Virus record (IMG/VR): IMGVR_UViG_2778261389_000007
Origin: a virus
Lineage: Duplodnaviria; Heunggongvirae; Uroviricota; Caudoviricetes
Reading direction: 5' to 3' (one strand)
Length of the DNA: 6,117 bases
A program made the translations under genes and the position numbers. The notes under the pieces were generated by a model. It worked only from the letters and a program-made list of their open reading frames with translations. It was not told the DNA's origin and did not search any database. Shown here piece after piece: positions 1-5,369 of the stretch (positions are counted from its first letter, which is position 1; each line of letters opens with the position of its first letter).

Positions 1-1314
1 TTAACTTACTGATTTTAATAATCCTCTACTGCTAGTTTGTGGTCTATGGGGCATCAATGGGGCAAAATCACCCAGCTTCTGATTCAGCATTGCGATCTGC
101 TCTGCGTTATTGTCTGCCATCCATGCGCCGTACACATTGAAAACCATTTGCGCACTAGCGTGCCCCATCTGACTGGCTATAAAGCTTGGATTGGCGCCAG
201 CGGCCAGTGACCAGCACGCGTAAGTGTGGCGCGACTGGTAAGCTTTTCGATGCCTGATCCCCGCCTTTTTTAACCCTGCGTCCCACGAGTCACCAAACGA
301 ATCAACCTTGTAGATAACCCCCACATCCTTACTTCGACGGACTATCTTAGGGTTAAAGACAAATGTACAGCTGTGCTGCGTTGTTCGACCATATTCACGC
401 AATTGCACGTTGATGTGATACTGCTGCCCGAGTCTAGTCATTTCCATCTGATTCCTTAACGCATCGATGGCTGGCTGAATGAGGTGTATCACTCTATCCG
501 TACTGGCGTCCGTTTTCGGTAGTGTGAACTCGCCCAGTTTTGTATAATTACGGCGAATTGTTATTGTACCCGCTTCAAGGTCTATATCTTCCCATGCCAG
601 GGAAACCAGTTCTCCGTGACGAACACCTGTGTACACCGCCAGTGACCACATGTTTTTCGTCTGCTGATGCCGGCACGCATCTATCAGACGGATGAATTCA
701 TCACGGCTGAGCGGATCTGGCTCCACCCTGGCCCTTTTTAATGGCTTTATTCCATCAAAGGGATTTGCCTTTATGTACCCATTATCGGCGGCGAACTGGA
801 ACATTCCGGCGATAGTCGTCATGTAGTAATTGACGGTGACCGCGCTCCGGCCCTTAACAGGGATCCTGCCCTTTGCCGCGCACTGATAACCCATCAAAAG
901 CTCTTTCCTGATGTACAGCAACTCTTCTTTCTCAATCGCTGTCACCAGTCGGGTAGCCCCGATCAGCGGTACAACAACTGCCACGACCGACTCGTACCGT
1001 TTGTGCGCGTTCGCGCTGATTTCCATCTTTTTCAGATCCAGCCACTTCTCTTCGAGTTCTTTCACTGTGATTTCTTTCTTGCCCAACCCAAAAATTTTAA
1101 GGTTAGGTGAATCTGGAAACCGTTCAGCATAATCAAAGCTTCCCGTGCGGATGGCAAAGCATACCGACACCCGCAGTTCCCCGGCGATCTTCCTGTTCTT
1201 AGCGGTGTCAGGGACACCGAGGTTTTCCCTGACGCGCTTACCTTTAAAATTAAACCAGATGCGCAGACTGCCACCGTGGTTTTCGACGCCTGTTGGATAT
1301 GTGATTTTATCCAT
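1..1314 (-). CDS. int: Phage tyrosine integrase (lambdoid Int family), 437 aa
   Basis: Seen: full ORF with ATG at 1314..1312, preceded on the minus strand by GGAGG with a 5-nt spacer; stop TAA at 3..1. Established: N-terminal arm-type region (MDKITYPTGVENHGGSLRIWFNFKGKRV), then tyrosine-recombinase motifs in canonical order: TGVRHGEL (catalytic Arg, about aa 232), SRHTYA (Arg-His box, about aa 362), GHASAQM...NVYGAW (His about 385, nucleophile Tyr about 395). Resembles E. coli lambdoid prophage integrases from memory; not searched. Confidence 0.93.
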   Translation of the reverse strand: MDKITYPTGVENHGGSLRIWFNFKGKRVRENLGVPDTAKNRKIAGELRVSVCFAIRTGSFDYAERFPDSPNLKIFGLGKKEITVKELEEKWLDLKKMEISANAHKRYESVVAVVVPLIGATRLVTAIEKEELLYIRKELLMGYQCAAKGRIPVKGRSAVTVNYYMTTIAGMFQFAADNGYIKANPFDGIKPLKRARVEPDPLSRDEFIRLIDACRHQQTKNMWSLAVYTGVRHGELVSLAWEDIDLEAGTITIRRNYTKLGEFTLPKTDASTDRVIHLIQPAIDALRNQMEMTRLGQQYHINVQLREYGRTTQHSCTFVFNPKIVRRSKDVGVIYKVDSFGDSWDAGLKKAGIRHRKAYQSRHTYACWSLAAGANPSFIASQMGHASAQMVFNVYGAWMADNNAEQIAMLNQKLGDFAPLMPHRPQTSSRGLLKSVS

Positions 1315-1369
1315 TAATACCTCCAGACGCCCAAGAGCGATACGAGCTTACCTTTTTCATGGCATCAAA

Positions 1370-1606
1370 TCATCCTGGCTGCTTGCTTTTCATTGAAGCG
1401 ACCCAGGCATCTACAGCCTTTCTGTTATACATGCACTCACTGGAAGGTTTTGGATTCCCGTCAGGTGATACGTGGATATACTCCCTCCCAACCATCCAGC
1501 ACTCTTTTCTGGCCCGGAGGATGGTACCGGGCTTGAGCCCGGTAACCGCGATAAGAACGCTTTCACAAACCCAATCGTTAGGAGCTAACTGAATAACATT
1601 GCTCAT
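1370..1606 (-). CDS. xis: Excisionase-like protein (putative Xis / recombination directionality factor), 78 aa
   Basis: Seen: 78-aa ORF immediately upstream of int on the same strand with a 55-nt gap; ATG at 1606 preceded by GAGGCGGG. Inference: position and size fit lambdoid xis; the basic central segment (KPGTILRARKECWMVGREYIHVSPDG) is consistent with a small DNA-binding excisionase. Family membership not verified. Confidence 0.65.
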   Translation of the reverse strand: MSNVIQLAPNDWVCESVLIAVTGLKPGTILRARKECWMVGREYIHVSPDGNPKPSSECMYNRKAVDAWVASMKSKQPG

Positions 1607-1615
1607 ATACCCGCC

Positions 1616-1762
1616 TCACACCAAGTCAAGGCCACGGCAGTGGCGCCACACATCAAACATCCGCTTTACCACTTCCCTACAGTAAAAACCGTCGCAATCT
1701 CGCGTAAGGTCGTAACGGCTCCCGTACCGTTGGCGCACCCATATTTCAAATGCTTTGTGCAT
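1616..1762 (-). CDS. Small hypothetical protein, 48 aa, Cys/His-containing (MHKAFEIWVRQRYGSRYDLTRDCDGFYCREVVKRMFDVWRHCRGLDLV); absent from the supplied ORF track
   Basis: Seen: hand translation of the minus strand. ATG at 1762..1760 shares one base with the TAA stop of the upstream gene (TAATG); stop TGA at 1618..1616 lies 9 nt before the xis ATG and overlaps its GAGG Shine-Dalgarno. Fills an otherwise unexplained 155-nt gap in a tightly packed operon. Too short for the ORF track. Function unknown. Confidence 0.5.
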   Translation of the reverse strand: MHKAFEIWVRQRYGSRYDLTRDCDGFYCREVVKRMFDVWRHCRGLDLV

Positions 1763-2073
1763 TACTTCACCTCTGCAGATAACGTCGTCACAATGACATG
1801 CTGGCGCGCCTTGGGTTTTATCAGAAAAATAGCCTTGTCATGCCTGAGCCCGTATCCACCTTCACGTTCGCAGCGTGCGACTGAGGCGCACAAAGAGCGG
1901 GGAATACCTTTCTTGCTGACATCAAATACCCAGGCGTTTTTGAGATCGAGGATCAGATTTCCTACATCGCCACCAATGCGTTCGATATAGCGTTCAATAG
2001 CGTGAACAGTCACCATGTAGTGGCGAAACTGCACACTTCCTGAGGCGGTCATTATTGGTGTAGTGGTGGTCAT
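1762..2073 (-). CDS. Hypothetical small phage protein, 103 aa, with HAIERYIERIG motif (possible small toxin-like/nuclease-like fold; speculative)
   Basis: Seen: the track ORF 1762..2109 has an in-frame ATG at 2073 preceded by a strong Shine-Dalgarno (GGAGGTGAAGTG then ATG) and sharing one base with the upstream gene's TGA stop (TGATG), so the 103-aa form is preferred. Inference: the HAxERxxER motif and hydrophobic C-terminus (VIVTTL) are reminiscent of small toxin-like domains, recalled from memory only. Confidence 0.7.
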   Translation of the reverse strand: MTTTTPIMTASGSVQFRHYMVTVHAIERYIERIGGDVGNLILDLKNAWVFDVSKKGIPRSLCASVARCEREGGYGLRHDKAIFLIKPKARQHVIVTTLSAEVK

Positions 2074-2534
2074 CACTTCACCTCCACGCCGATCCCGGCA
2101 ATGACACAAGCTCGCTCTATAGCTTCTTTCACCCAGCGCTTATAGGTTTCCGGATGGAATACTTCGCTTTTCCCGGTATCGCTCCAGAACGCTTTTGACG
2201 TAATATCTGGCAGGGTGATGGTCAACGGTTTACCAGAAGTGACATCGCTAACCACTCTCTCCCAGTGGTCGCCAGTCTGCGATTCAAGACGCTGAATTAA
2301 CTCCCCAATACTTAAAGGGGCGATCAACTGCTGGCGTAAGCGCTGAATCTCCGCCGCCATGTAGTAACCGGTTTTGCTCCAGGTATCTACATCATCACCG
2401 GCCATATCCGGTTCCATCGTCGCCATCAGAACGGCGTCGTGATAGTCCTGGCTGCCATTGGTGATCGCGACAGCGTAGGTATCACTGTTTTCGCGCTTAT
2501 AGATAAGCACGACAGGGTTAGTGATTTTGCTCAT
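2073..2534 (-). CDS. Hypothetical phage protein, 153 aa
   Basis: Seen: ORF with ATG at 2534 in a 4-nt ATGA overlap with the upstream gene's stop (2531-2534, plus-strand tcat); its TGA stop overlaps the start of the downstream 103-aa gene. Mixed amino-acid composition typical of real coding sequence. No recognisable motif. Confidence 0.75.
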   Translation of the reverse strand: MSKITNPVVLIYKRENSDTYAVAITNGSQDYHDAVLMATMEPDMAGDDVDTWSKTGYYMAAEIQRLRQQLIAPLSIGELIQRLESQTGDHWERVVSDVTSGKPLTITLPDITSKAFWSDTGKSEVFHPETYKRWVKEAIERACVIAGIGVEVK

Positions 2535-2743
2535 TTCGCCGTCTCCCGCTCAGCTTCGATGATGGCATCTACAGCCATCACCAGAGTTCTGGCTAGGTCG
2601 TCGTAATCCTGCCATGCATCATTGCTAAAAAAATTCGTGAGCATTACCGGCGCTATCTGCACAACGAGGTGCTGGCGGTAAGTCATGCCACGGGGAGTAT
2701 CAATGCGCGGGCATGGGTAAGCTGAATGCTGGCCTTTGCTCAT
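2531..2743 (-). CDS. Hypothetical small phage protein, 70 aa
   Basis: Seen: ORF bounded by ATGA overlaps at both ends (2740-2743 and 2531-2534). Function unknown. Confidence 0.7.
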   Translation of the reverse strand: MSKGQHSAYPCPRIDTPRGMTYRQHLVVQIAPVMLTNFFSNDAWQDYDDLARTLVMAVDAIIEAERETAK

Positions 2744-2964
2744 CGTGTCGCCTCTCGTTGAATTGTCTTGTAGGCTCGCAACATATCGCGAGATTTTCCG
2801 GACAAAACCGTCTTCATGAAGAACATTCCACTACGGTTTGCAACTATTCCTGGTGTGCAGAGCAGTGTGGCGTCTACCACGCGGTTATGTTTACGGAACT
2901 CAAACACAGTACTGGTGATCACGATGTTCGCTACGGCGCCATAGTCCTGGTATTGGATTTTCAT
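2740..2964 (-). CDS. Hypothetical small phage protein, 74 aa (MKIQYQDYGAV...)
   Basis: Seen: the track ORF extends to 3006, but the in-frame ATG at 2964 forms an ATGA overlap with the upstream gene's stop (2961-2964) and has GGAG about 10 nt upstream; the 3006 ATG has GGTGG directly abutting it with no spacer. The shorter start is preferred. Confidence 0.65.
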   Translation of the reverse strand: MKIQYQDYGAVANIVITSTVFEFRKHNRVVDATLLCTPGIVANRSGMFFMKTVLSGKSRDMLRAYKTIQREATR

Positions 2965-3386
2965 GAAATTGAATCTCCGGCAGTTTCTTTTGTGTAGTTT
3001 TCCCATCCACCATAGCTGTTAACCATTTCGCCCAGCCGCGAGAAGCAAGCATTCATCCATCGGATGCCCCTTGGGGTTAGTGTTGGTACAGTCCCCCAGT
3101 CGATGAAGTCAGAATTACTGCGGTGCATATATTTAATGAGGTCCAGAATGTTGATGTAATGGGCACGGCGTTTTTCCATATCCCATCCCTTATCTTCCAA
3201 ATACGAATCGATAAAGCTCTTAATGGCTGGTTGGTCTAGTGAAATATCCCCGTACTGATGGCGGTACACCGGGCGACGGTGCATGCTGACTAAGTGGAAC
3301 AGGTAGGCATCAGACACCCATATCAGCGCTTGCTGGTGGGCCAGCTCAACAGAGCCAACCGGTACCCAAATTTCATTATTGTTCAC
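2961..3386 (-). CDS. Hypothetical phage protein, about 141 aa (146 aa if the ATG at 3401 is used)
   Basis: Seen: ORF 2961..3401. A GTG at 3386..3384 is preceded by GGGAGGG with a 6-nt spacer and forms a GTGA overlap with the upstream Bro-N gene's stop (3383-3385). The ATG at 3401 would overlap that gene by 19 nt and has only a weak GGTGA upstream. The start is therefore ambiguous; the protein is unrecognised. Confidence 0.65.
   Translation of the reverse strand: MNNNEIWVPVGSVELAHQQALIWVSDAYLFHLVSMHRRPVYRHQYGDISLDQPAIKSFIDSYLEDKGWDMEKRRAHYINILDLIKYMHRSNSDFIDWGTVPTLTPRGIRWMNACFSRLGEMVNSYGGWENYTKETAGDSIS
3332..3339 (+). other. Chi-like octamer GCTGGTGG (RecBCD recombination hotspot sequence), single copy
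   Basis: Seen: exact 8-mer on the plus strand at 3332-3339. Established: this is the E. coli Chi sequence. One copy in 6 kb is roughly the expected background density in enterobacterial DNA, so significance is doubtful. Confidence 0.3.
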
Positions 3387-4141
3387 TGTTGACCCTCCCA
3401 TCCAATCACCTGGAACAGCCCCATCTTAGGGTGATACCACCGGGTGCCTCGAGGTTCAGCTTCAAACATCATTTTGGTGAATGCCGTCATAAATGGCTGC
3501 TCACGCACAATGGTCATGGTGGATTTGGTTCCTCCAGGCGCAATAAATGGGATAGGCTTATGGTCGATGTCATAAGCGGAGACTAACTGGCGACACTTTG
3601 CATCTGAAAGTCCGCACAGTGCTTTCAATTCCGAGTATCCAGCCCAACCAGGAGGCGTTGCACCACGAGCGATATGATCTACTAGCTCGGTAACCTCAAC
3701 GACCTTGTCCTCAACGTGGTTAAGGCGACGCTCCTGCTCAACATTCAGCAGGGCCATTTCGGCAATGATCTCCGCCTGAGATTTAGGGCGTTGGTATCTA
3801 TAGCTGCCAGTTTCGCGGATAGATGGCAGAACATCTTCGCATACCCAGTCTTGTACACGTTCAGCGGAAGCAAGCTGGCTACGGAGAATGAGCCGGTAAG
3901 CATCAGATTCAGACGCAAGTTGCATGCCACGAATTTTGTCGTTAAAACCCAATTCTCGCGATTCGCTATAATTAAGTTTAATCAATGACTTGCAGTGAGT
4001 TTTTAGCGCGTCAGCCGGATTTGCGTAACCCAGGGATTTTGCCAGCTCAACGGCATCAAATACTGGTTTTCCCTGGTAAAGCATCCCGCTCAGAGAAATG
4101 CCGAGATCCGACGAGTTAAATTTCATCAGTTGATTACTCAT
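3383..4141 (-). CDS. Bro-N domain protein (phage antirepressor-like N-terminal DNA-binding domain) with uncharacterised C-terminal domain, 252 aa
   Basis: Seen: the track ORF 3383..4267 has an in-frame ATG at 4141 (MSNQLMKFNSS...) preceded by GGAGGAAG with a 9-nt spacer; the longer form would overlap the next gene by more than 130 nt. Established: the N-terminus carries Bro-N hallmarks (GKPVFDAVELAKSLGYANPADAL ... YRLILRSQLASAERVQDWVCEDVLPSIRETGSY). The C-terminal half, about 135 aa, is unrecognised. Confidence 0.8.
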   Translation of the reverse strand: MSNQLMKFNSSDLGISLSGMLYQGKPVFDAVELAKSLGYANPADALKTHCKSLIKLNYSESRELGFNDKIRGMQLASESDAYRLILRSQLASAERVQDWVCEDVLPSIRETGSYRYQRPKSQAEIIAEMALLNVEQERRLNHVEDKVVEVTELVDHIARGATPPGWAGYSELKALCGLSDAKCRQLVSAYDIDHKPIPFIAPGGTKSTMTIVREQPFMTAFTKMMFEAEPRGTRWYHPKMGLFQVIGWEGQQ

Positions 4142-4418
4142 TGTCTTCTTCCTCCAGTTCCTTTGCTTCTCGTTCGGCAATTGCATCGAGTTCTGCATCA
4201 AGCGATTCGGCCTCGCCATAGGTCGCGATGCGGATAGATTTGAATGCTGGTTCGCTGAATTCAGCATGCCCCTTACAGAGCCCAGCAGTCGCAGAAACTA
4301 CAGCCTCCATTTCGCTACTACTGCCGACAAAGATTGAATATTCGCGGCGCTCGGCATTTTCAGTCACCATGAATGTGACGCAGTACCACGCAGTGATAAG
4401 TTCGTTTTTCATCATCAT
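4134..4418 (-). CDS. Hypothetical small acidic protein, 94 aa, with strongly acidic C-terminal tail (ESLDAELDAIAEREAKELEEEDNE)
   Basis: Seen: ORF with three tandem ATGs at 4418, 4415 and 4412; GAGGT lies 2-3 nt before the first, so the true start is probably the second or third. Its stop overlaps the Bro-N gene start by 8 nt. About 21 acidic against 8 basic residues, by hand count. Confidence 0.65.
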   Translation of the reverse strand: MMMKNELITAWYCVTFMVTENAERREYSIFVGSSSEMEAVVSATAGLCKGHAEFSEPAFKSIRIATYGEAESLDAELDAIAEREAKELEEEDNE

Positions 4419-5145: not shown

Positions 5146-5369
5146 CAGTTAGCTCCTGTATACGTAACCCGGCTTCGCGAGCCATTTTGATAAAAGTGTC
5201 CAGTGCGCAAATATGTTCGTCGTCGAGCAGCCGGCGGTCGCATGTCACACGCCCTTTTTCGATGTAAAGAACCACGCGTCCGGTGAAATCCGGAAGCACA
5301 TGCAGATCCACGTTGAGGACTGGGGGGGGGGATCTGCATTCCGTGCATAATTGTTTGTTGTGAGGCCAT
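5117..5369 (-). pseudogene. Small phage ORF split by a frameshift in a G10 (minus-strand C10) homopolymer; an 83-aa product would be restored by a 1-nt contraction
   Basis: Seen: ATG at 5369..5367 is TGATG-coupled to the upstream gene's stop and reads MASQQTIMHGMQI-PPP into the C-run, after which that frame turns Arg-rich (SPQRGSACASGFHRTRGSLHRKRACDMRPP...). The -1 frame after the run is protein-like (VLNVDLHVLPDFTGRVVLYIEKGRVTCDRRLLDDEHICALDTFIKMAREAGLRIQELTGGTDSNSNT, stop at 5117). With 9 rather than 10 G the two halves join in frame (hand-checked). Confidence 0.5.
5300..5339. repeat. Perfect 10-bp inverted repeat (ATGCAGATCC / GGATCTGCAT) with a 20-nt spacer containing the G-run
   Basis: Seen: plus strand 5300-5309 atgcagatcc and 5330-5339 ggatctgcat are exact reverse complements. 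The G10 run (5322-5331) fills the 3' part of the spacer and runs 2 nt into the right arm. Each arm contains a GATC. Confidence 0.85.

Follow-up and report, generated by a model that had tools for sequence, protein, structure and literature searches.

A 103-amino-acid (aa) protein encoded close to the excisionase gene (xis) of a lambdoid prophage is best explained as a solo phage RNase of the BECR fold, whose gene is probably separable from the 153-aa backbone gene that precedes it. The two genes are neighbours that can occur apart, in a slot beside xis that is prone to exchange, and the shorter one therefore probably encodes a stand-alone phage RNase and not one half of a new toxin-immunity system. 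This differs from a preliminary description of the same DNA, in which the genes were put forward as a candidate two-gene toxin-immunity or abortive-infection-like module.

Gene order and anatomy of the locus

The whole stretch of DNA that was analysed (6,117 nucleotides, referred to below as the window) contains the following features:

1..1314, minus strand: tyrosine integrase gene (int), marking the prophage end (RefSeq annotation of the near-identical E. coli G3/10 prophage)
1370..1606, minus strand: excisionase gene (xis; DUF1233; Pfam PF06806, E 1.3e-32)
1616..1762, minus strand: 48-aa gene (phrog_3871; PHROG match, E 1.6e-32), conserved right flank of the cassette slot
1762..2073, minus strand: 103-aa gene for a colicin-like BECR-fold protein, a predicted RNase, in the variable cassette slot
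1783..1803, minus strand: codons of residues 91-97 (QHVIVTT) of the 103-aa protein, predicted terminal beta-strand (alignment A3; model strand 91-97)
1966..2013, minus strand: codons of residues 21-36 (VTVHAIERYIERIGGD) of the 103-aa protein, predicted first helix (alignments A1 and A3; model helix 23-32)
2073..2534, minus strand: 153-aa gene for a modular prophage backbone protein (open reading frame with 733+ homologous clusters)
2076..2243, minus strand: C-terminal module of the 153-aa protein (aa 98-153), conserved left flank of the cassette slot
2078..2085, minus strand: Shine-Dalgarno (SD) sequence GGAGGTGA of the 103-aa gene (sequence reading, junction table)
2319..2534, minus strand: N-terminal module of the 153-aa protein (aa 1-72; phrog_492, E 2.3e-12, residues 1-72)

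The presence of two overlapping genes next to xis was confirmed in the sequence. The 153-aa open reading frame (ORF) is read from 2534 to 2073 and the 103-aa ORF from 2073 to 1762, the start of the latter being an internal ATG within a program-listed ORF of 115 aa. Their junction reads GGCGTGGAGGTGAAGTGATGACC and includes the TGATG overlap noted before, in which base 2073 belongs to both the TGA stop and the ATG start. The claim of a very strong ribosome-binding site for the 103-aa gene also holds: GGAGGTGA matches the anti-SD sequence perfectly over 8 nt and stops 4 nt short of the ATG, and no other gene in the window has as long an SD match. The final codons (G-V-E-V-K) of the 153-aa gene contain it. 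Comparison with homologues shows purifying selection on both ORFs (dN/dS 0.09-0.20) and, judged by these values and by the clusters of full-length homologues (733+ for the 153-aa protein, 17 for the 103-aa protein), both are real genes.

The leftward gene order is Bro-N/Ant-like, 146 aa, 74 aa, 70 aa, 153 aa, 103 aa, 48 aa, xis and int, with further genes upstream and with the 48-aa gene overlapping the 103-aa stop codon by 1 nt. The region probably lies near the end of a long leftward early operon in a lambdoid prophage found in Citrobacter, E. coli and Salmonella. Overlaps of exactly 1 or 4 nt occur at 8 of the 14 tabulated junctions of this gene string; the 1-nt overlap is therefore not special to the 153/103 pair, and the translational coupling of these genes is generic for the operon. 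Neither promoter-like (sigma-70-like) nor terminator-like sites were found on the minus strand between 1300 and 3100. A search for Rfam elements and structured RNA gave no match at E <= 1, and an RNA antitoxin was rejected on this basis. A recent foreign insertion was likewise rejected from composition, which shows no anomaly (GC ~0.50 throughout).

The 103-aa protein: predicted fold and conserved residues

The 103-aa protein has no family match in Pfam, PHROG, NCBIfam or PADLOC, and its own family is very small: 1.84 billion proteins include 29 of its representatives at the 50% identity level. Truncation or a frameshift affects four of the 17 close clusters, which could reflect either a costly gene or an assembly error. 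In the IMG/VR loci collected with the closer alignment (A2) the gene is intact in every case (28/28), and it is carried by lysogens.

The HAxERxxER motif of the preliminary description is present within residues 21-36 (VTVHAIERYIERIGGD), and its H24, R28 and R32 are conserved across the family (alignments A1 and A3). On the predicted terminal strand, T96 is invariant and H92 mostly conserved (A3). Across 33 members, down to 25% identity, no substitution occurs at R28, R32 or T96 and H24 is nearly invariant, and we regard H24, R28 and R32 as putative catalytic residues. In the active-site configuration of PBECR (phage BECR) domains and colicin D, a His in the N-terminal helix is combined with a C-terminal Thr/Ser (PMC5512222), while in the colicin-like group the active-site positions lie on pre-alpha plus the terminal beta4 (2026 BECR preprint). 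The predicted H24/R28/R32 helix and T96 strand match both patterns.

Structure prediction with an alignment of 13 sequences gave one model of five at pLDDT 69, the other four ranging from 39 to 57. The elements of the model (E, strand; H, helix) are E14-16, E19-21, H23-32, H37-45, E48-50, H63-71, E74-78, E81-86 and E91-97. This predicted topology agrees with that described for colicin-like BECR domains, i.e. an N-terminal helix or helices on a four-stranded antiparallel sheet, with extra N-terminal strands optional (2026 BECR preprint). The structural neighbours of the model are almost exclusively BECR-fold RNase toxins, the best being the CdiA-CT NC101 tRNase, and two different structure-comparison programs return the same top match and the same superfamily; from the BFVD viral structure library only uncharacterised phage proteins were retrieved. 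One of the two proteins is therefore predicted to have a recognised toxin fold. The earlier suggestion of a toxin- or RNase-like protein is supported by these structural matches and by the His/Arg/Thr pattern, the modelled protein resembling an RNase toxin of the colicin/RelE type. The hydrophobic C-terminus noted at the same time does exist, but it corresponds to the predicted last two beta-strands of the fold and contains no membrane segment.

CdiA-CT(NC101) (PDB 5i4q) is a colicin-like BECR tRNase that cleaves tRNA acceptor stems with EF-Tu, and its sequence identity with the 103-aa protein is only 9%. It lies at the C-terminal end of a very large secreted CDI effector, whose cognate CdiI is always encoded directly downstream, whereas the 103-aa protein would be a free-standing cytoplasmic phage protein and has no conserved neighbour. 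The conserved His is also placed differently, i.e. in the first helix of the 103-aa protein and near the C-terminus of CdiA-CT.

A weak parallel in sequence is offered by DUF4258/Ntox49, BECR toxins of type II toxin-antitoxin (TA) and polymorphic toxin systems. An HA..R...R-type motif in the N-terminal helix is typical of DUF4258 and is common to both families. They are also of similar size and, according to the model, share the colicin-like topology; DUF4258/Ntox49 has been placed in the colicin-like BECR group (2026 BECR preprint). Two members of the 103-aa family align end to end and co-linearly with the whole DUF4258 profile (PF14076, positions 1-70/71; E 0.008 and 0.057); the best score in the family is 16.9 bits, below the gathering cut-off of 25, and single members reach similar E-values with unrelated Pfam families. 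The protein of the window itself has no Pfam match at E <= 0.1, and no PBECR-named family appears among the Pfam matches of its relatives at E <= 1. In the PDB, neither single sequences nor the family profile found more than chance-level matches, and a homologue search seeded with P0163 as a bridge to DUF4258 recovered the query alone. DUF4258 toxins adjoin an antitoxin, often MqsA-like and sometimes fused to the toxin, but none is found at the 103-aa locus. On balance, we consider the protein likely to be a stand-alone, colicin-like BECR-fold member with a distant likeness to DUF4258/Ntox49 and a His24, Arg28, Arg32 and Thr96 signature.

Among phage proteins, a close concept is that of the PBECR domains defined by Iyer, Burroughs, Anand, de Souza and Aravind in 2017, which include 'solo versions in phages' and whose proposed role is the cutting of host, phage or defence RNAs (PMC5512222). 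[quoted passage not shown] PBECRs were defined mostly from domains within giant virion proteins, polyvalent or fused to MuF/portal, that are injected with the DNA, whereas the 103-aa gene is an early-operon gene of a temperate lambdoid phage. The phage BECR-fold RNase T4 RegB is expressed early without an antitoxin, as we propose for the 103-aa protein, and is toxic when cloned. RegB shows no detectable sequence match to the 103-aa protein and is not a top-rank structural match; moreover, it belongs to a lytic phage and requires ribosomal protein S1, in contrast to a gene of a temperate lambdoid phage.

A BECR-like protein is not necessarily a nuclease. The 103-aa protein might instead bind RNA or a host protein (EF-Tu, ribosome) and act as a regulator or an anti-defence factor. 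A precedent exists in BECR domains that are inactive, for example the phage Mu MuF C-domain, and inactive PBECR domains with a predicted RNA-binding role have been described by Iyer et al. (PMC5512222). The lack of a cognate antitoxin anywhere in the 103-aa family and the intactness of a gene carried by lysogens are consistent with such a role. However, the invariant and near-invariant positions are exactly the catalytic-type His, Arg and Thr, and an active enzyme is therefore expected rather than a binding scaffold, which leaves the non-nuclease alternative unlikely.

The 153-aa protein and the cassette slot

The 153-aa protein (153-154 aa across its homologous clusters) consists of an Eae-like N-module, a variable coiled-coil middle part and a conserved 55-aa C-module with the consensus LTITLPDxxSKAFWSxTGKxEVFHPETYKRWVKEAIERxCVIAGIxVxVK. 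In tblastn searches the N-module matches the 'Eae-like protein' of phage Cyrano and others over the N-terminal part only, and elsewhere it is fused to other C-termini (e.g. a 164-aa protein at locus L013 shares aa 1-70 only); the C-module is joined to other N-termini in Fels-1 STM0895 and at loci L041 and L046. Named relatives share one module or the other: 'Eae-like' proteins have the N-module, and STM0895 has the C-module (57% identity over aa 66-153). A further relative is ES18 gp36. STM0895 sits in the corresponding place, ahead of the 48-aa gene, xis and int, but its N-terminal half is different and the next gene encodes a 71-aa Zn-ribbon-like protein instead of the BECR protein.

No family in Pfam or NCBIfam matches the 153-aa protein, and phrog_492, over the N-module, is its only PHROG match. 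HTH, RHH, AbrB and Phd domains were not detected (Pfam, NCBIfam), the only PADLOC match was to a BrxC fragment at chance level (E 0.013, 11 bits), and there are no sequence relatives in the PDB. The AF2 model was unusable (pLDDT 44), because the homologues used were >= 82% identical. The name 'ATPase' attached to this family in public sources is an inherited label, which we reject: reading of the sequence reveals no Walker A motif (GxxxxGK[ST]), and neither Pfam nor NCBIfam identifies an ATPase domain.

The gene following the C-module was determined for the best 80 of 111 confirmed IMG/VR relatives. A member of the 103-aa family comes next in 23 of these 80 loci. Nine other gene families or the 48-aa gene itself fill the slot in 56, including a 71-aa protein (21 loci), a 120-aa protein (12), a DUF4222 protein (8) and direct continuation into the 48-aa gene (5); a single locus has no downstream ORF. 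Among 5426 complete E. coli genomes the pair was found in two, and one more carries the 153-aa gene with another neighbour. Conversely, the gene upstream is an unrelated one in about 13 lineages of the 103-aa family (L007, L009, L012, L013, L016, L038, L042, L044, L127-L130, L132). Cryptic C-module homologues in this position were sought and rejected, the upstream proteins of L038 (72 aa), L130 (114 aa), L007 (80 aa), L012 (138 aa) and L128 (165 aa) giving hhalign probabilities of <1%; the similar endings of upstream genes (..GVEVK, ..GVGK, ..EGVAK) arise because the SD sequence of the next gene is embedded there. At L038 and L039 a 92%-identical 103-aa copy persists with neither neighbour intact. 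No conserved neighbour of the 103-aa family was found across the surveyed loci.

The two genes also differ in their divergence. Relative to locus L034, the 103-aa gene has a dS of 0.20, against 0.59 for the 153-aa gene. Proteins of 103 aa that are 100% identical adjoin upstream proteins only 58-71% identical, and a C-module 83% identical lies beside a 103-aa homologue 51% identical. As an antitoxin candidate, the 48-aa gene was rejected: it stays beside xis regardless of the BECR cassette and is absent or disrupted at L009, L016, L038 and L041. We conclude that the 103-aa gene is probably one of ~10 alternative cassettes that occur between the C-module and the 48-aa gene.

These data bear directly on the possibility of a genuine type II TA-like pair, in which the 153-aa protein, by way of its C-module, would bind and neutralise the 103-aa BECR toxin and translational coupling would set their stoichiometry. 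The toxin-like fold predicted for the 103-aa protein, the 1-nt overlap with a strong SD sequence, and the 23 paired loci are all compatible with this reading. Moreover, the C-module precedes 103-aa homologues diverged to 51-65% identity (L041, L045, L046), even where the N-terminal part differs, and some linkage beyond very close relatives therefore exists. However, the slot is otherwise occupied in most C-module loci, the pair is rare in E. coli, the ~13 lineages lack a C-module upstream, the partners do not co-vary, the 153-aa protein has neither a DNA-binding or antitoxin domain nor a promoter of its own, and the same overlaps occur at unrelated junctions of the operon. An Abi-like or defence pair fares no better, given that the 103-aa protein has no match in PADLOC, that there is no internal promoter, and that the coupling is generic. 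The genes occur apart in other phages, in both directions, an observation that the preliminary description had itself named as speaking against a module. A dedicated toxin-immunity pair is thus quite improbable.

Proposed role and significance

According to the explanation we favour, the solo BECR RNase, the 103-aa protein would be a metal-independent endoribonuclease. Its gene would be transcribed only via read-through from the early-left promoter; we propose that it is therefore silent in the repressed lysogen, where a cognate antitoxin would be unneeded. Once transcribed, it would be translated efficiently from its own strong SD sequence, and after induction or infection the protein may cut host or phage RNA. 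By analogy with colicin-like BECR enzymes, tRNA would be the most likely substrate; the analogy with T4 RegB makes mRNA a possible one. The phage may benefit through host takeover, counter-defence or exclusion.

A broader proposal, which we regard as rather speculative and improbable in its full form, is that a dedicated effector slot, driven by recombination, lies between the C-module gene and the 48-aa gene in the early-left operon of lambdoid prophages from enterobacteria. The cassettes of this slot (BECR RNase, Zn-ribbon, ClpX-zinc-finger and DUF4222 proteins, and others) would be interchangeable counter-defence or host-takeover effectors, with the BECR cassette encoding an RNase without an antitoxin, which on induction would destroy a host defence RNA or one specific tRNA. 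Alternatively, within the same proposal, the C-module protein would be a shared chaperone or inhibitor serving different cassettes. Finally, it is very unlikely that the BECR assignment is an artefact of a shallow alignment and that both proteins are ordinary lambdoid 'ea-region' fillers with no RNase or conflict role: the modest pLDDT of the best model (the other four being worse), the lack of profile matches above threshold and the similar sub-threshold Pfam noise for unrelated families would fit this view, but two structure-comparison programs agree, two members align end to end with DUF4258, and the conserved residues fall on the structurally expected elements.

Two lessons for annotation follow. 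Overlap and a strong ribosome-binding site next to xis are no evidence for a TA module in these operons, and the unfounded 'ATPase' label of the 153-aa family makes RefSeq call an intact gene a pseudogene fragment. So far, phage BECR domains have been treated chiefly as TA toxins or as components of polyvalent virion proteins that are injected. If our interpretation is correct, a stand-alone, immunity-less BECR RNase would be added to the early genes of temperate enterobacterial phages, and the enzyme, with its H/R/R/T signature, could easily be assayed for its substrate (tRNA, mRNA or defence RNA) and might serve as a reagent.

Gene string and junctions

Every long ORF of the window is encoded on the minus strand, and together these ORFs make up a compact leftward string with xis and the integrase gene at its end:

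1-1314, minus strand: tyrosine integrase
1370-1606, minus strand: xis (Pfam DUF1233, E 1.3e-32)
2073 to 1762, minus strand: 103-aa ORF
2534 to 2073, minus strand: 153-aa ORF (6474-6935 in the compared locus L001), of which RefSeq/PGAP labels the last codons a pseudogene

Next downstream of the latter two genes come a 48-aa gene (phrog_3871) and xis. Given this gene string and the matches in E. coli G3/10 (a near-identical prophage, 99% over 1600-2760, adjoining the DUF72/yecN/cmoA genes) and Citrobacter youngae CCUG 30791 (103-aa and 153-aa proteins both 100% identical to those of the window), the element is a lambdoid prophage of Enterobacteriaceae.

The two genes meet at GTGGAGGTGAAGTGATGACC, in which base 2073 is common to the stop and start codons. 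The Shine-Dalgarno (SD) sequence of the 103-aa gene, GGAGGTGA (2078-2085), matches the anti-SD perfectly over 8 nt, and no match in the window is longer. The overlap and the very strong ribosome-binding site noted in the preliminary description are therefore real; the overlap does not mark a special pair, since the gaps along the operon are of the same kind (-1, -4, -4, -4, -4, -1, -1). From 1300 to 3100 the coding strand contained no promoter-like or terminator-like site, a search for Rfam elements found none, and there was no break in composition. Both have full-length homologues and are under purifying selection (dN/dS 0.09-0.20, Nei-Gojobori).

The same 14-nt junction, GAGGTGAAGT[G/A]ATG (SD, stop and start), occurs on both flanks of the 103-aa gene (2071-2084 and 1760-1773, minus strand), so that the proteins upstream of both junctions end in EVK; it may serve as a linker for recombination when cassettes are exchanged, or the two sites may just be strong SDs. 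Elsewhere in the window, a 10-nt homopolymer at 5322-5331 (G10 on the plus strand, C10 on the coding strand) lies between an ATG-initiated frame (from 5369) and a plausible protein-like one (VLNVDLHVLPDFTGRVVLYIEKGRV..., end 5117). Adding one C or removing two would fuse the frames into an ORF of ~83 aa, and the tract may be a sequencing error or slippage-prone.

A variable slot behind a modular protein

The 153-aa protein has >733 cluster-level homologues (153-154 aa) in Citrobacter, Salmonella, E. coli and Enterobacter, most of them labelled 'ATPase'. This name looks like a propagated mis-annotation, because the protein lacks ATPase features: it has no Walker motif, no Pfam/NCBIfam domain and no PDB relative. 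RefSeq/PGAP confines its annotation, an 'ATPase' pseudogene ('missing N-terminus'), to the last 56-58 codons of what is an intact ORF. The AF2 model of the protein could not be used (pLDDT 44). Sequence comparison shows a modular protein. Its residues 1-72 resemble phrog_492 and proteins annotated 'Eae-like', and are paired with other C-termini elsewhere; the middle is a coiled-coil region of varying length, giving 153-, 164-, 195-, 209- and 224-aa versions; the C-terminal module (C-module, residues ~98-153) is conserved and carries unrelated N-termini in Fels-1 STM0895 and in loci L041 and L046. The length versions differ by inserted coiled-coil blocks (upstream genes of L019, L023, L026 and L029), and the insert YDWQRQRLH..AEKVI.W.RQEA....GD..KAE.YACV.ELRDA..FCE also lies inside a separate 133-aa protein (L007, 3368-3769), a mosaicism at the level of domains that recalls lambda Ea22-type genes.

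With the C-module as query we searched IMG/VR, and the best 80 of 111 confirmed relatives were sorted by the gene that comes next.

Gene following the C-module (loci out of the best 80 of 111)
103-aa family: 23
71-aa Zn-ribbon-like basic protein: 21
120-aa coiled-coil protein: 12
DUF4222 protein: 8
48-aa gene directly: 5
93-aa protein: 4
Cys-rich 119-aa protein: 2
ClpX-zinc-finger protein, 106 aa: 2
singletons, one a 71-aa membrane protein: 2
downstream ORF not found: 1

Annotated C-module carriers without the 103-aa gene include phage phi467, Fels-1 and E. coli EC2001. The stretch from the C-module to the 48-aa gene (1616-2243, minus strand) behaves as a hypervariable cassette slot, with at least 10 alternatives among these contigs (L047-L126).

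The other side of the 103-aa gene varies as well. A 153-family gene precedes it in close relatives and in L011, L041, L045 and L046.

Other genes upstream of 103-aa homologues, by locus
L007: 80-aa basic protein
L009: ORF6N anti-repressor-like protein
L012: 138-aa protein
L013, L044: small membrane proteins
L016 (Aeromonas phage ST4): recombinase
L038: 72-aa protein
L042: unrelated gene, a homologue of the window's 74/88-aa protein, with its end 20 nt upstream
L127, L132: methyltransferases
L129: 293-aa protein
L130: 114-aa protein

All five alternative neighbours that were compared with the C-module by hhalign proved unrelated to it (probability <1% each). In L038 and L039 a 92%-identical 103-aa gene is present without a 153-family gene or an intact 48-aa gene. 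The ORF6N protein (L009, 3255-4001) and the window's Bro-N/anti-repressor-like protein (3383-4267, minus strand) have a common C-terminal tail, ...EAEPRGTRWYHPKMGLFQ.IGWE.., a further case of shared module ends at junctions. The methyltransferase neighbours, a DNA adenine methyltransferase-like gene (Pfam Dam; L127, 1856-2455) and an NPPF-motif methyltransferase-like fragment (L132, 2-448), each lie directly upstream of a distant 103-aa member; with two cases only, this may be coincidence.

The divergence of the two genes is discordant: 100% identical 103-aa proteins adjoin upstream proteins only 58-71% identical, an 83%-identical C-module adjoins a 51%-identical 103-aa homologue, and dS to L034 is 0.20 for the 103-aa gene versus 0.59 for the 153-aa gene. 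The pair lacks both the co-inheritance and the autonomous operon that define a type II toxin-antitoxin or immunity module, and it matched no PADLOC defence model. With the slot variable, the upstream genes variable and divergence discordant, the proposed two-gene module is wrong or at least unsupported. The C-module does stand upstream of several diverged 103-aa homologues, an association that synteny shared among prophages of one related group would give; a looser functional link is improbable. The region appears to hold a variable cassette slot between two conserved genes rather than a toxin and an antidote that co-evolve.

The 103-aa family and its predicted fold

The 103-aa family is tiny, with 17 clusters at 90% identity among 5.8 billion proteins and 29 representatives at 50% identity in a family-profile search of 1.84 billion (E <= 1e-3). 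One sequenced phage, Aeromonas phage ST4, has a homologue (29% identity), and the gene occurs in 2 of 5426 complete E. coli genomes. The protein matched nothing in Pfam, PHROGs, NCBIfam or PADLOC. The motif singled out earlier is present as VTVHAIERYIERIGGD (residues 21-36), and in an alignment of 33 members, with identity down to 25%, R28, R32 and T96 are invariant and H24, G72, L76 and F83 near-invariant.

In the best of five AlphaFold2 models (13-sequence MSA; pLDDT 69, pTM 0.62, the others being worse) the elements follow one another as beta-beta-alpha(23-32)-alpha(37-45)-beta-alpha-beta-beta-beta(91-97). In colicin-like and phage members of the BECR superfamily of RNase toxins, the active site is described as a His (with Lys/Arg) on the 'pre-alpha' helix near the N-terminus together with a Thr/Ser on the last strand, and phages carry solo versions too (PMC5512222; bioRxiv 10.64898/2026.08.28.747851). 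The 103-aa family is alike, with H24/R28/R32 and T96. The only recurrent Pfam signal was DUF4258, in two members (profile positions 1-70/71; E 0.008 and 0.057), sub-threshold and at a noise level equal to single matches with unrelated families, and it weakly corroborates the BECR reading. DUF4258/Ntox49 is the nearest named sequence family and 'solo PBECR' the nearest concept; the protein was assigned to neither, because the sequence threshold of no curated model was reached, and we file the proteins as an unannotated small family of the BECR superfamily. With moderate confidence, we read the 103-aa product as a free-standing BECR-fold protein of the colicin-like kind and a probable RNase. The toxin-like nature first ascribed to it is supported by the model and the conserved catalytic-type residues; its 'hydrophobic C-terminus' is the last two beta-strands of the predicted fold.

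Four of the 17 close clusters (P0010, P0013, P0016 and P0017 of alignment A1) are truncated, frameshifted or fused after residue 60-80; in P0010 and P0016 the frame runs on into the sequence of the 48-aa gene, and P0013 and P0017 end at 83 aa. This damage could reflect inactivation of a costly gene, or assembly artefacts, and we give it little weight.

Proposed role

The 103-aa gene is a small early-operon gene under selection. A very strong SD belongs to it alone, it lacks both a separate promoter and a conserved partner, and the modelled product combines a BECR-like fold with conserved catalytic-type residues. The protein would act as a metal-independent endoribonuclease. Its gene would be transcribed only on derepression of the early-left operon, at induction or infection, and a cognate antitoxin would therefore be unnecessary. 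Two toxic proteins that phages make early, T4 RegB (a BECR RNase) and lambda Kil, have no known antidote. The most likely substrate would be a tRNA, as for colicin-like BECR enzymes; mRNA or defence RNA, as proposed for PBECRs (PMC5512222), may be the alternatives.
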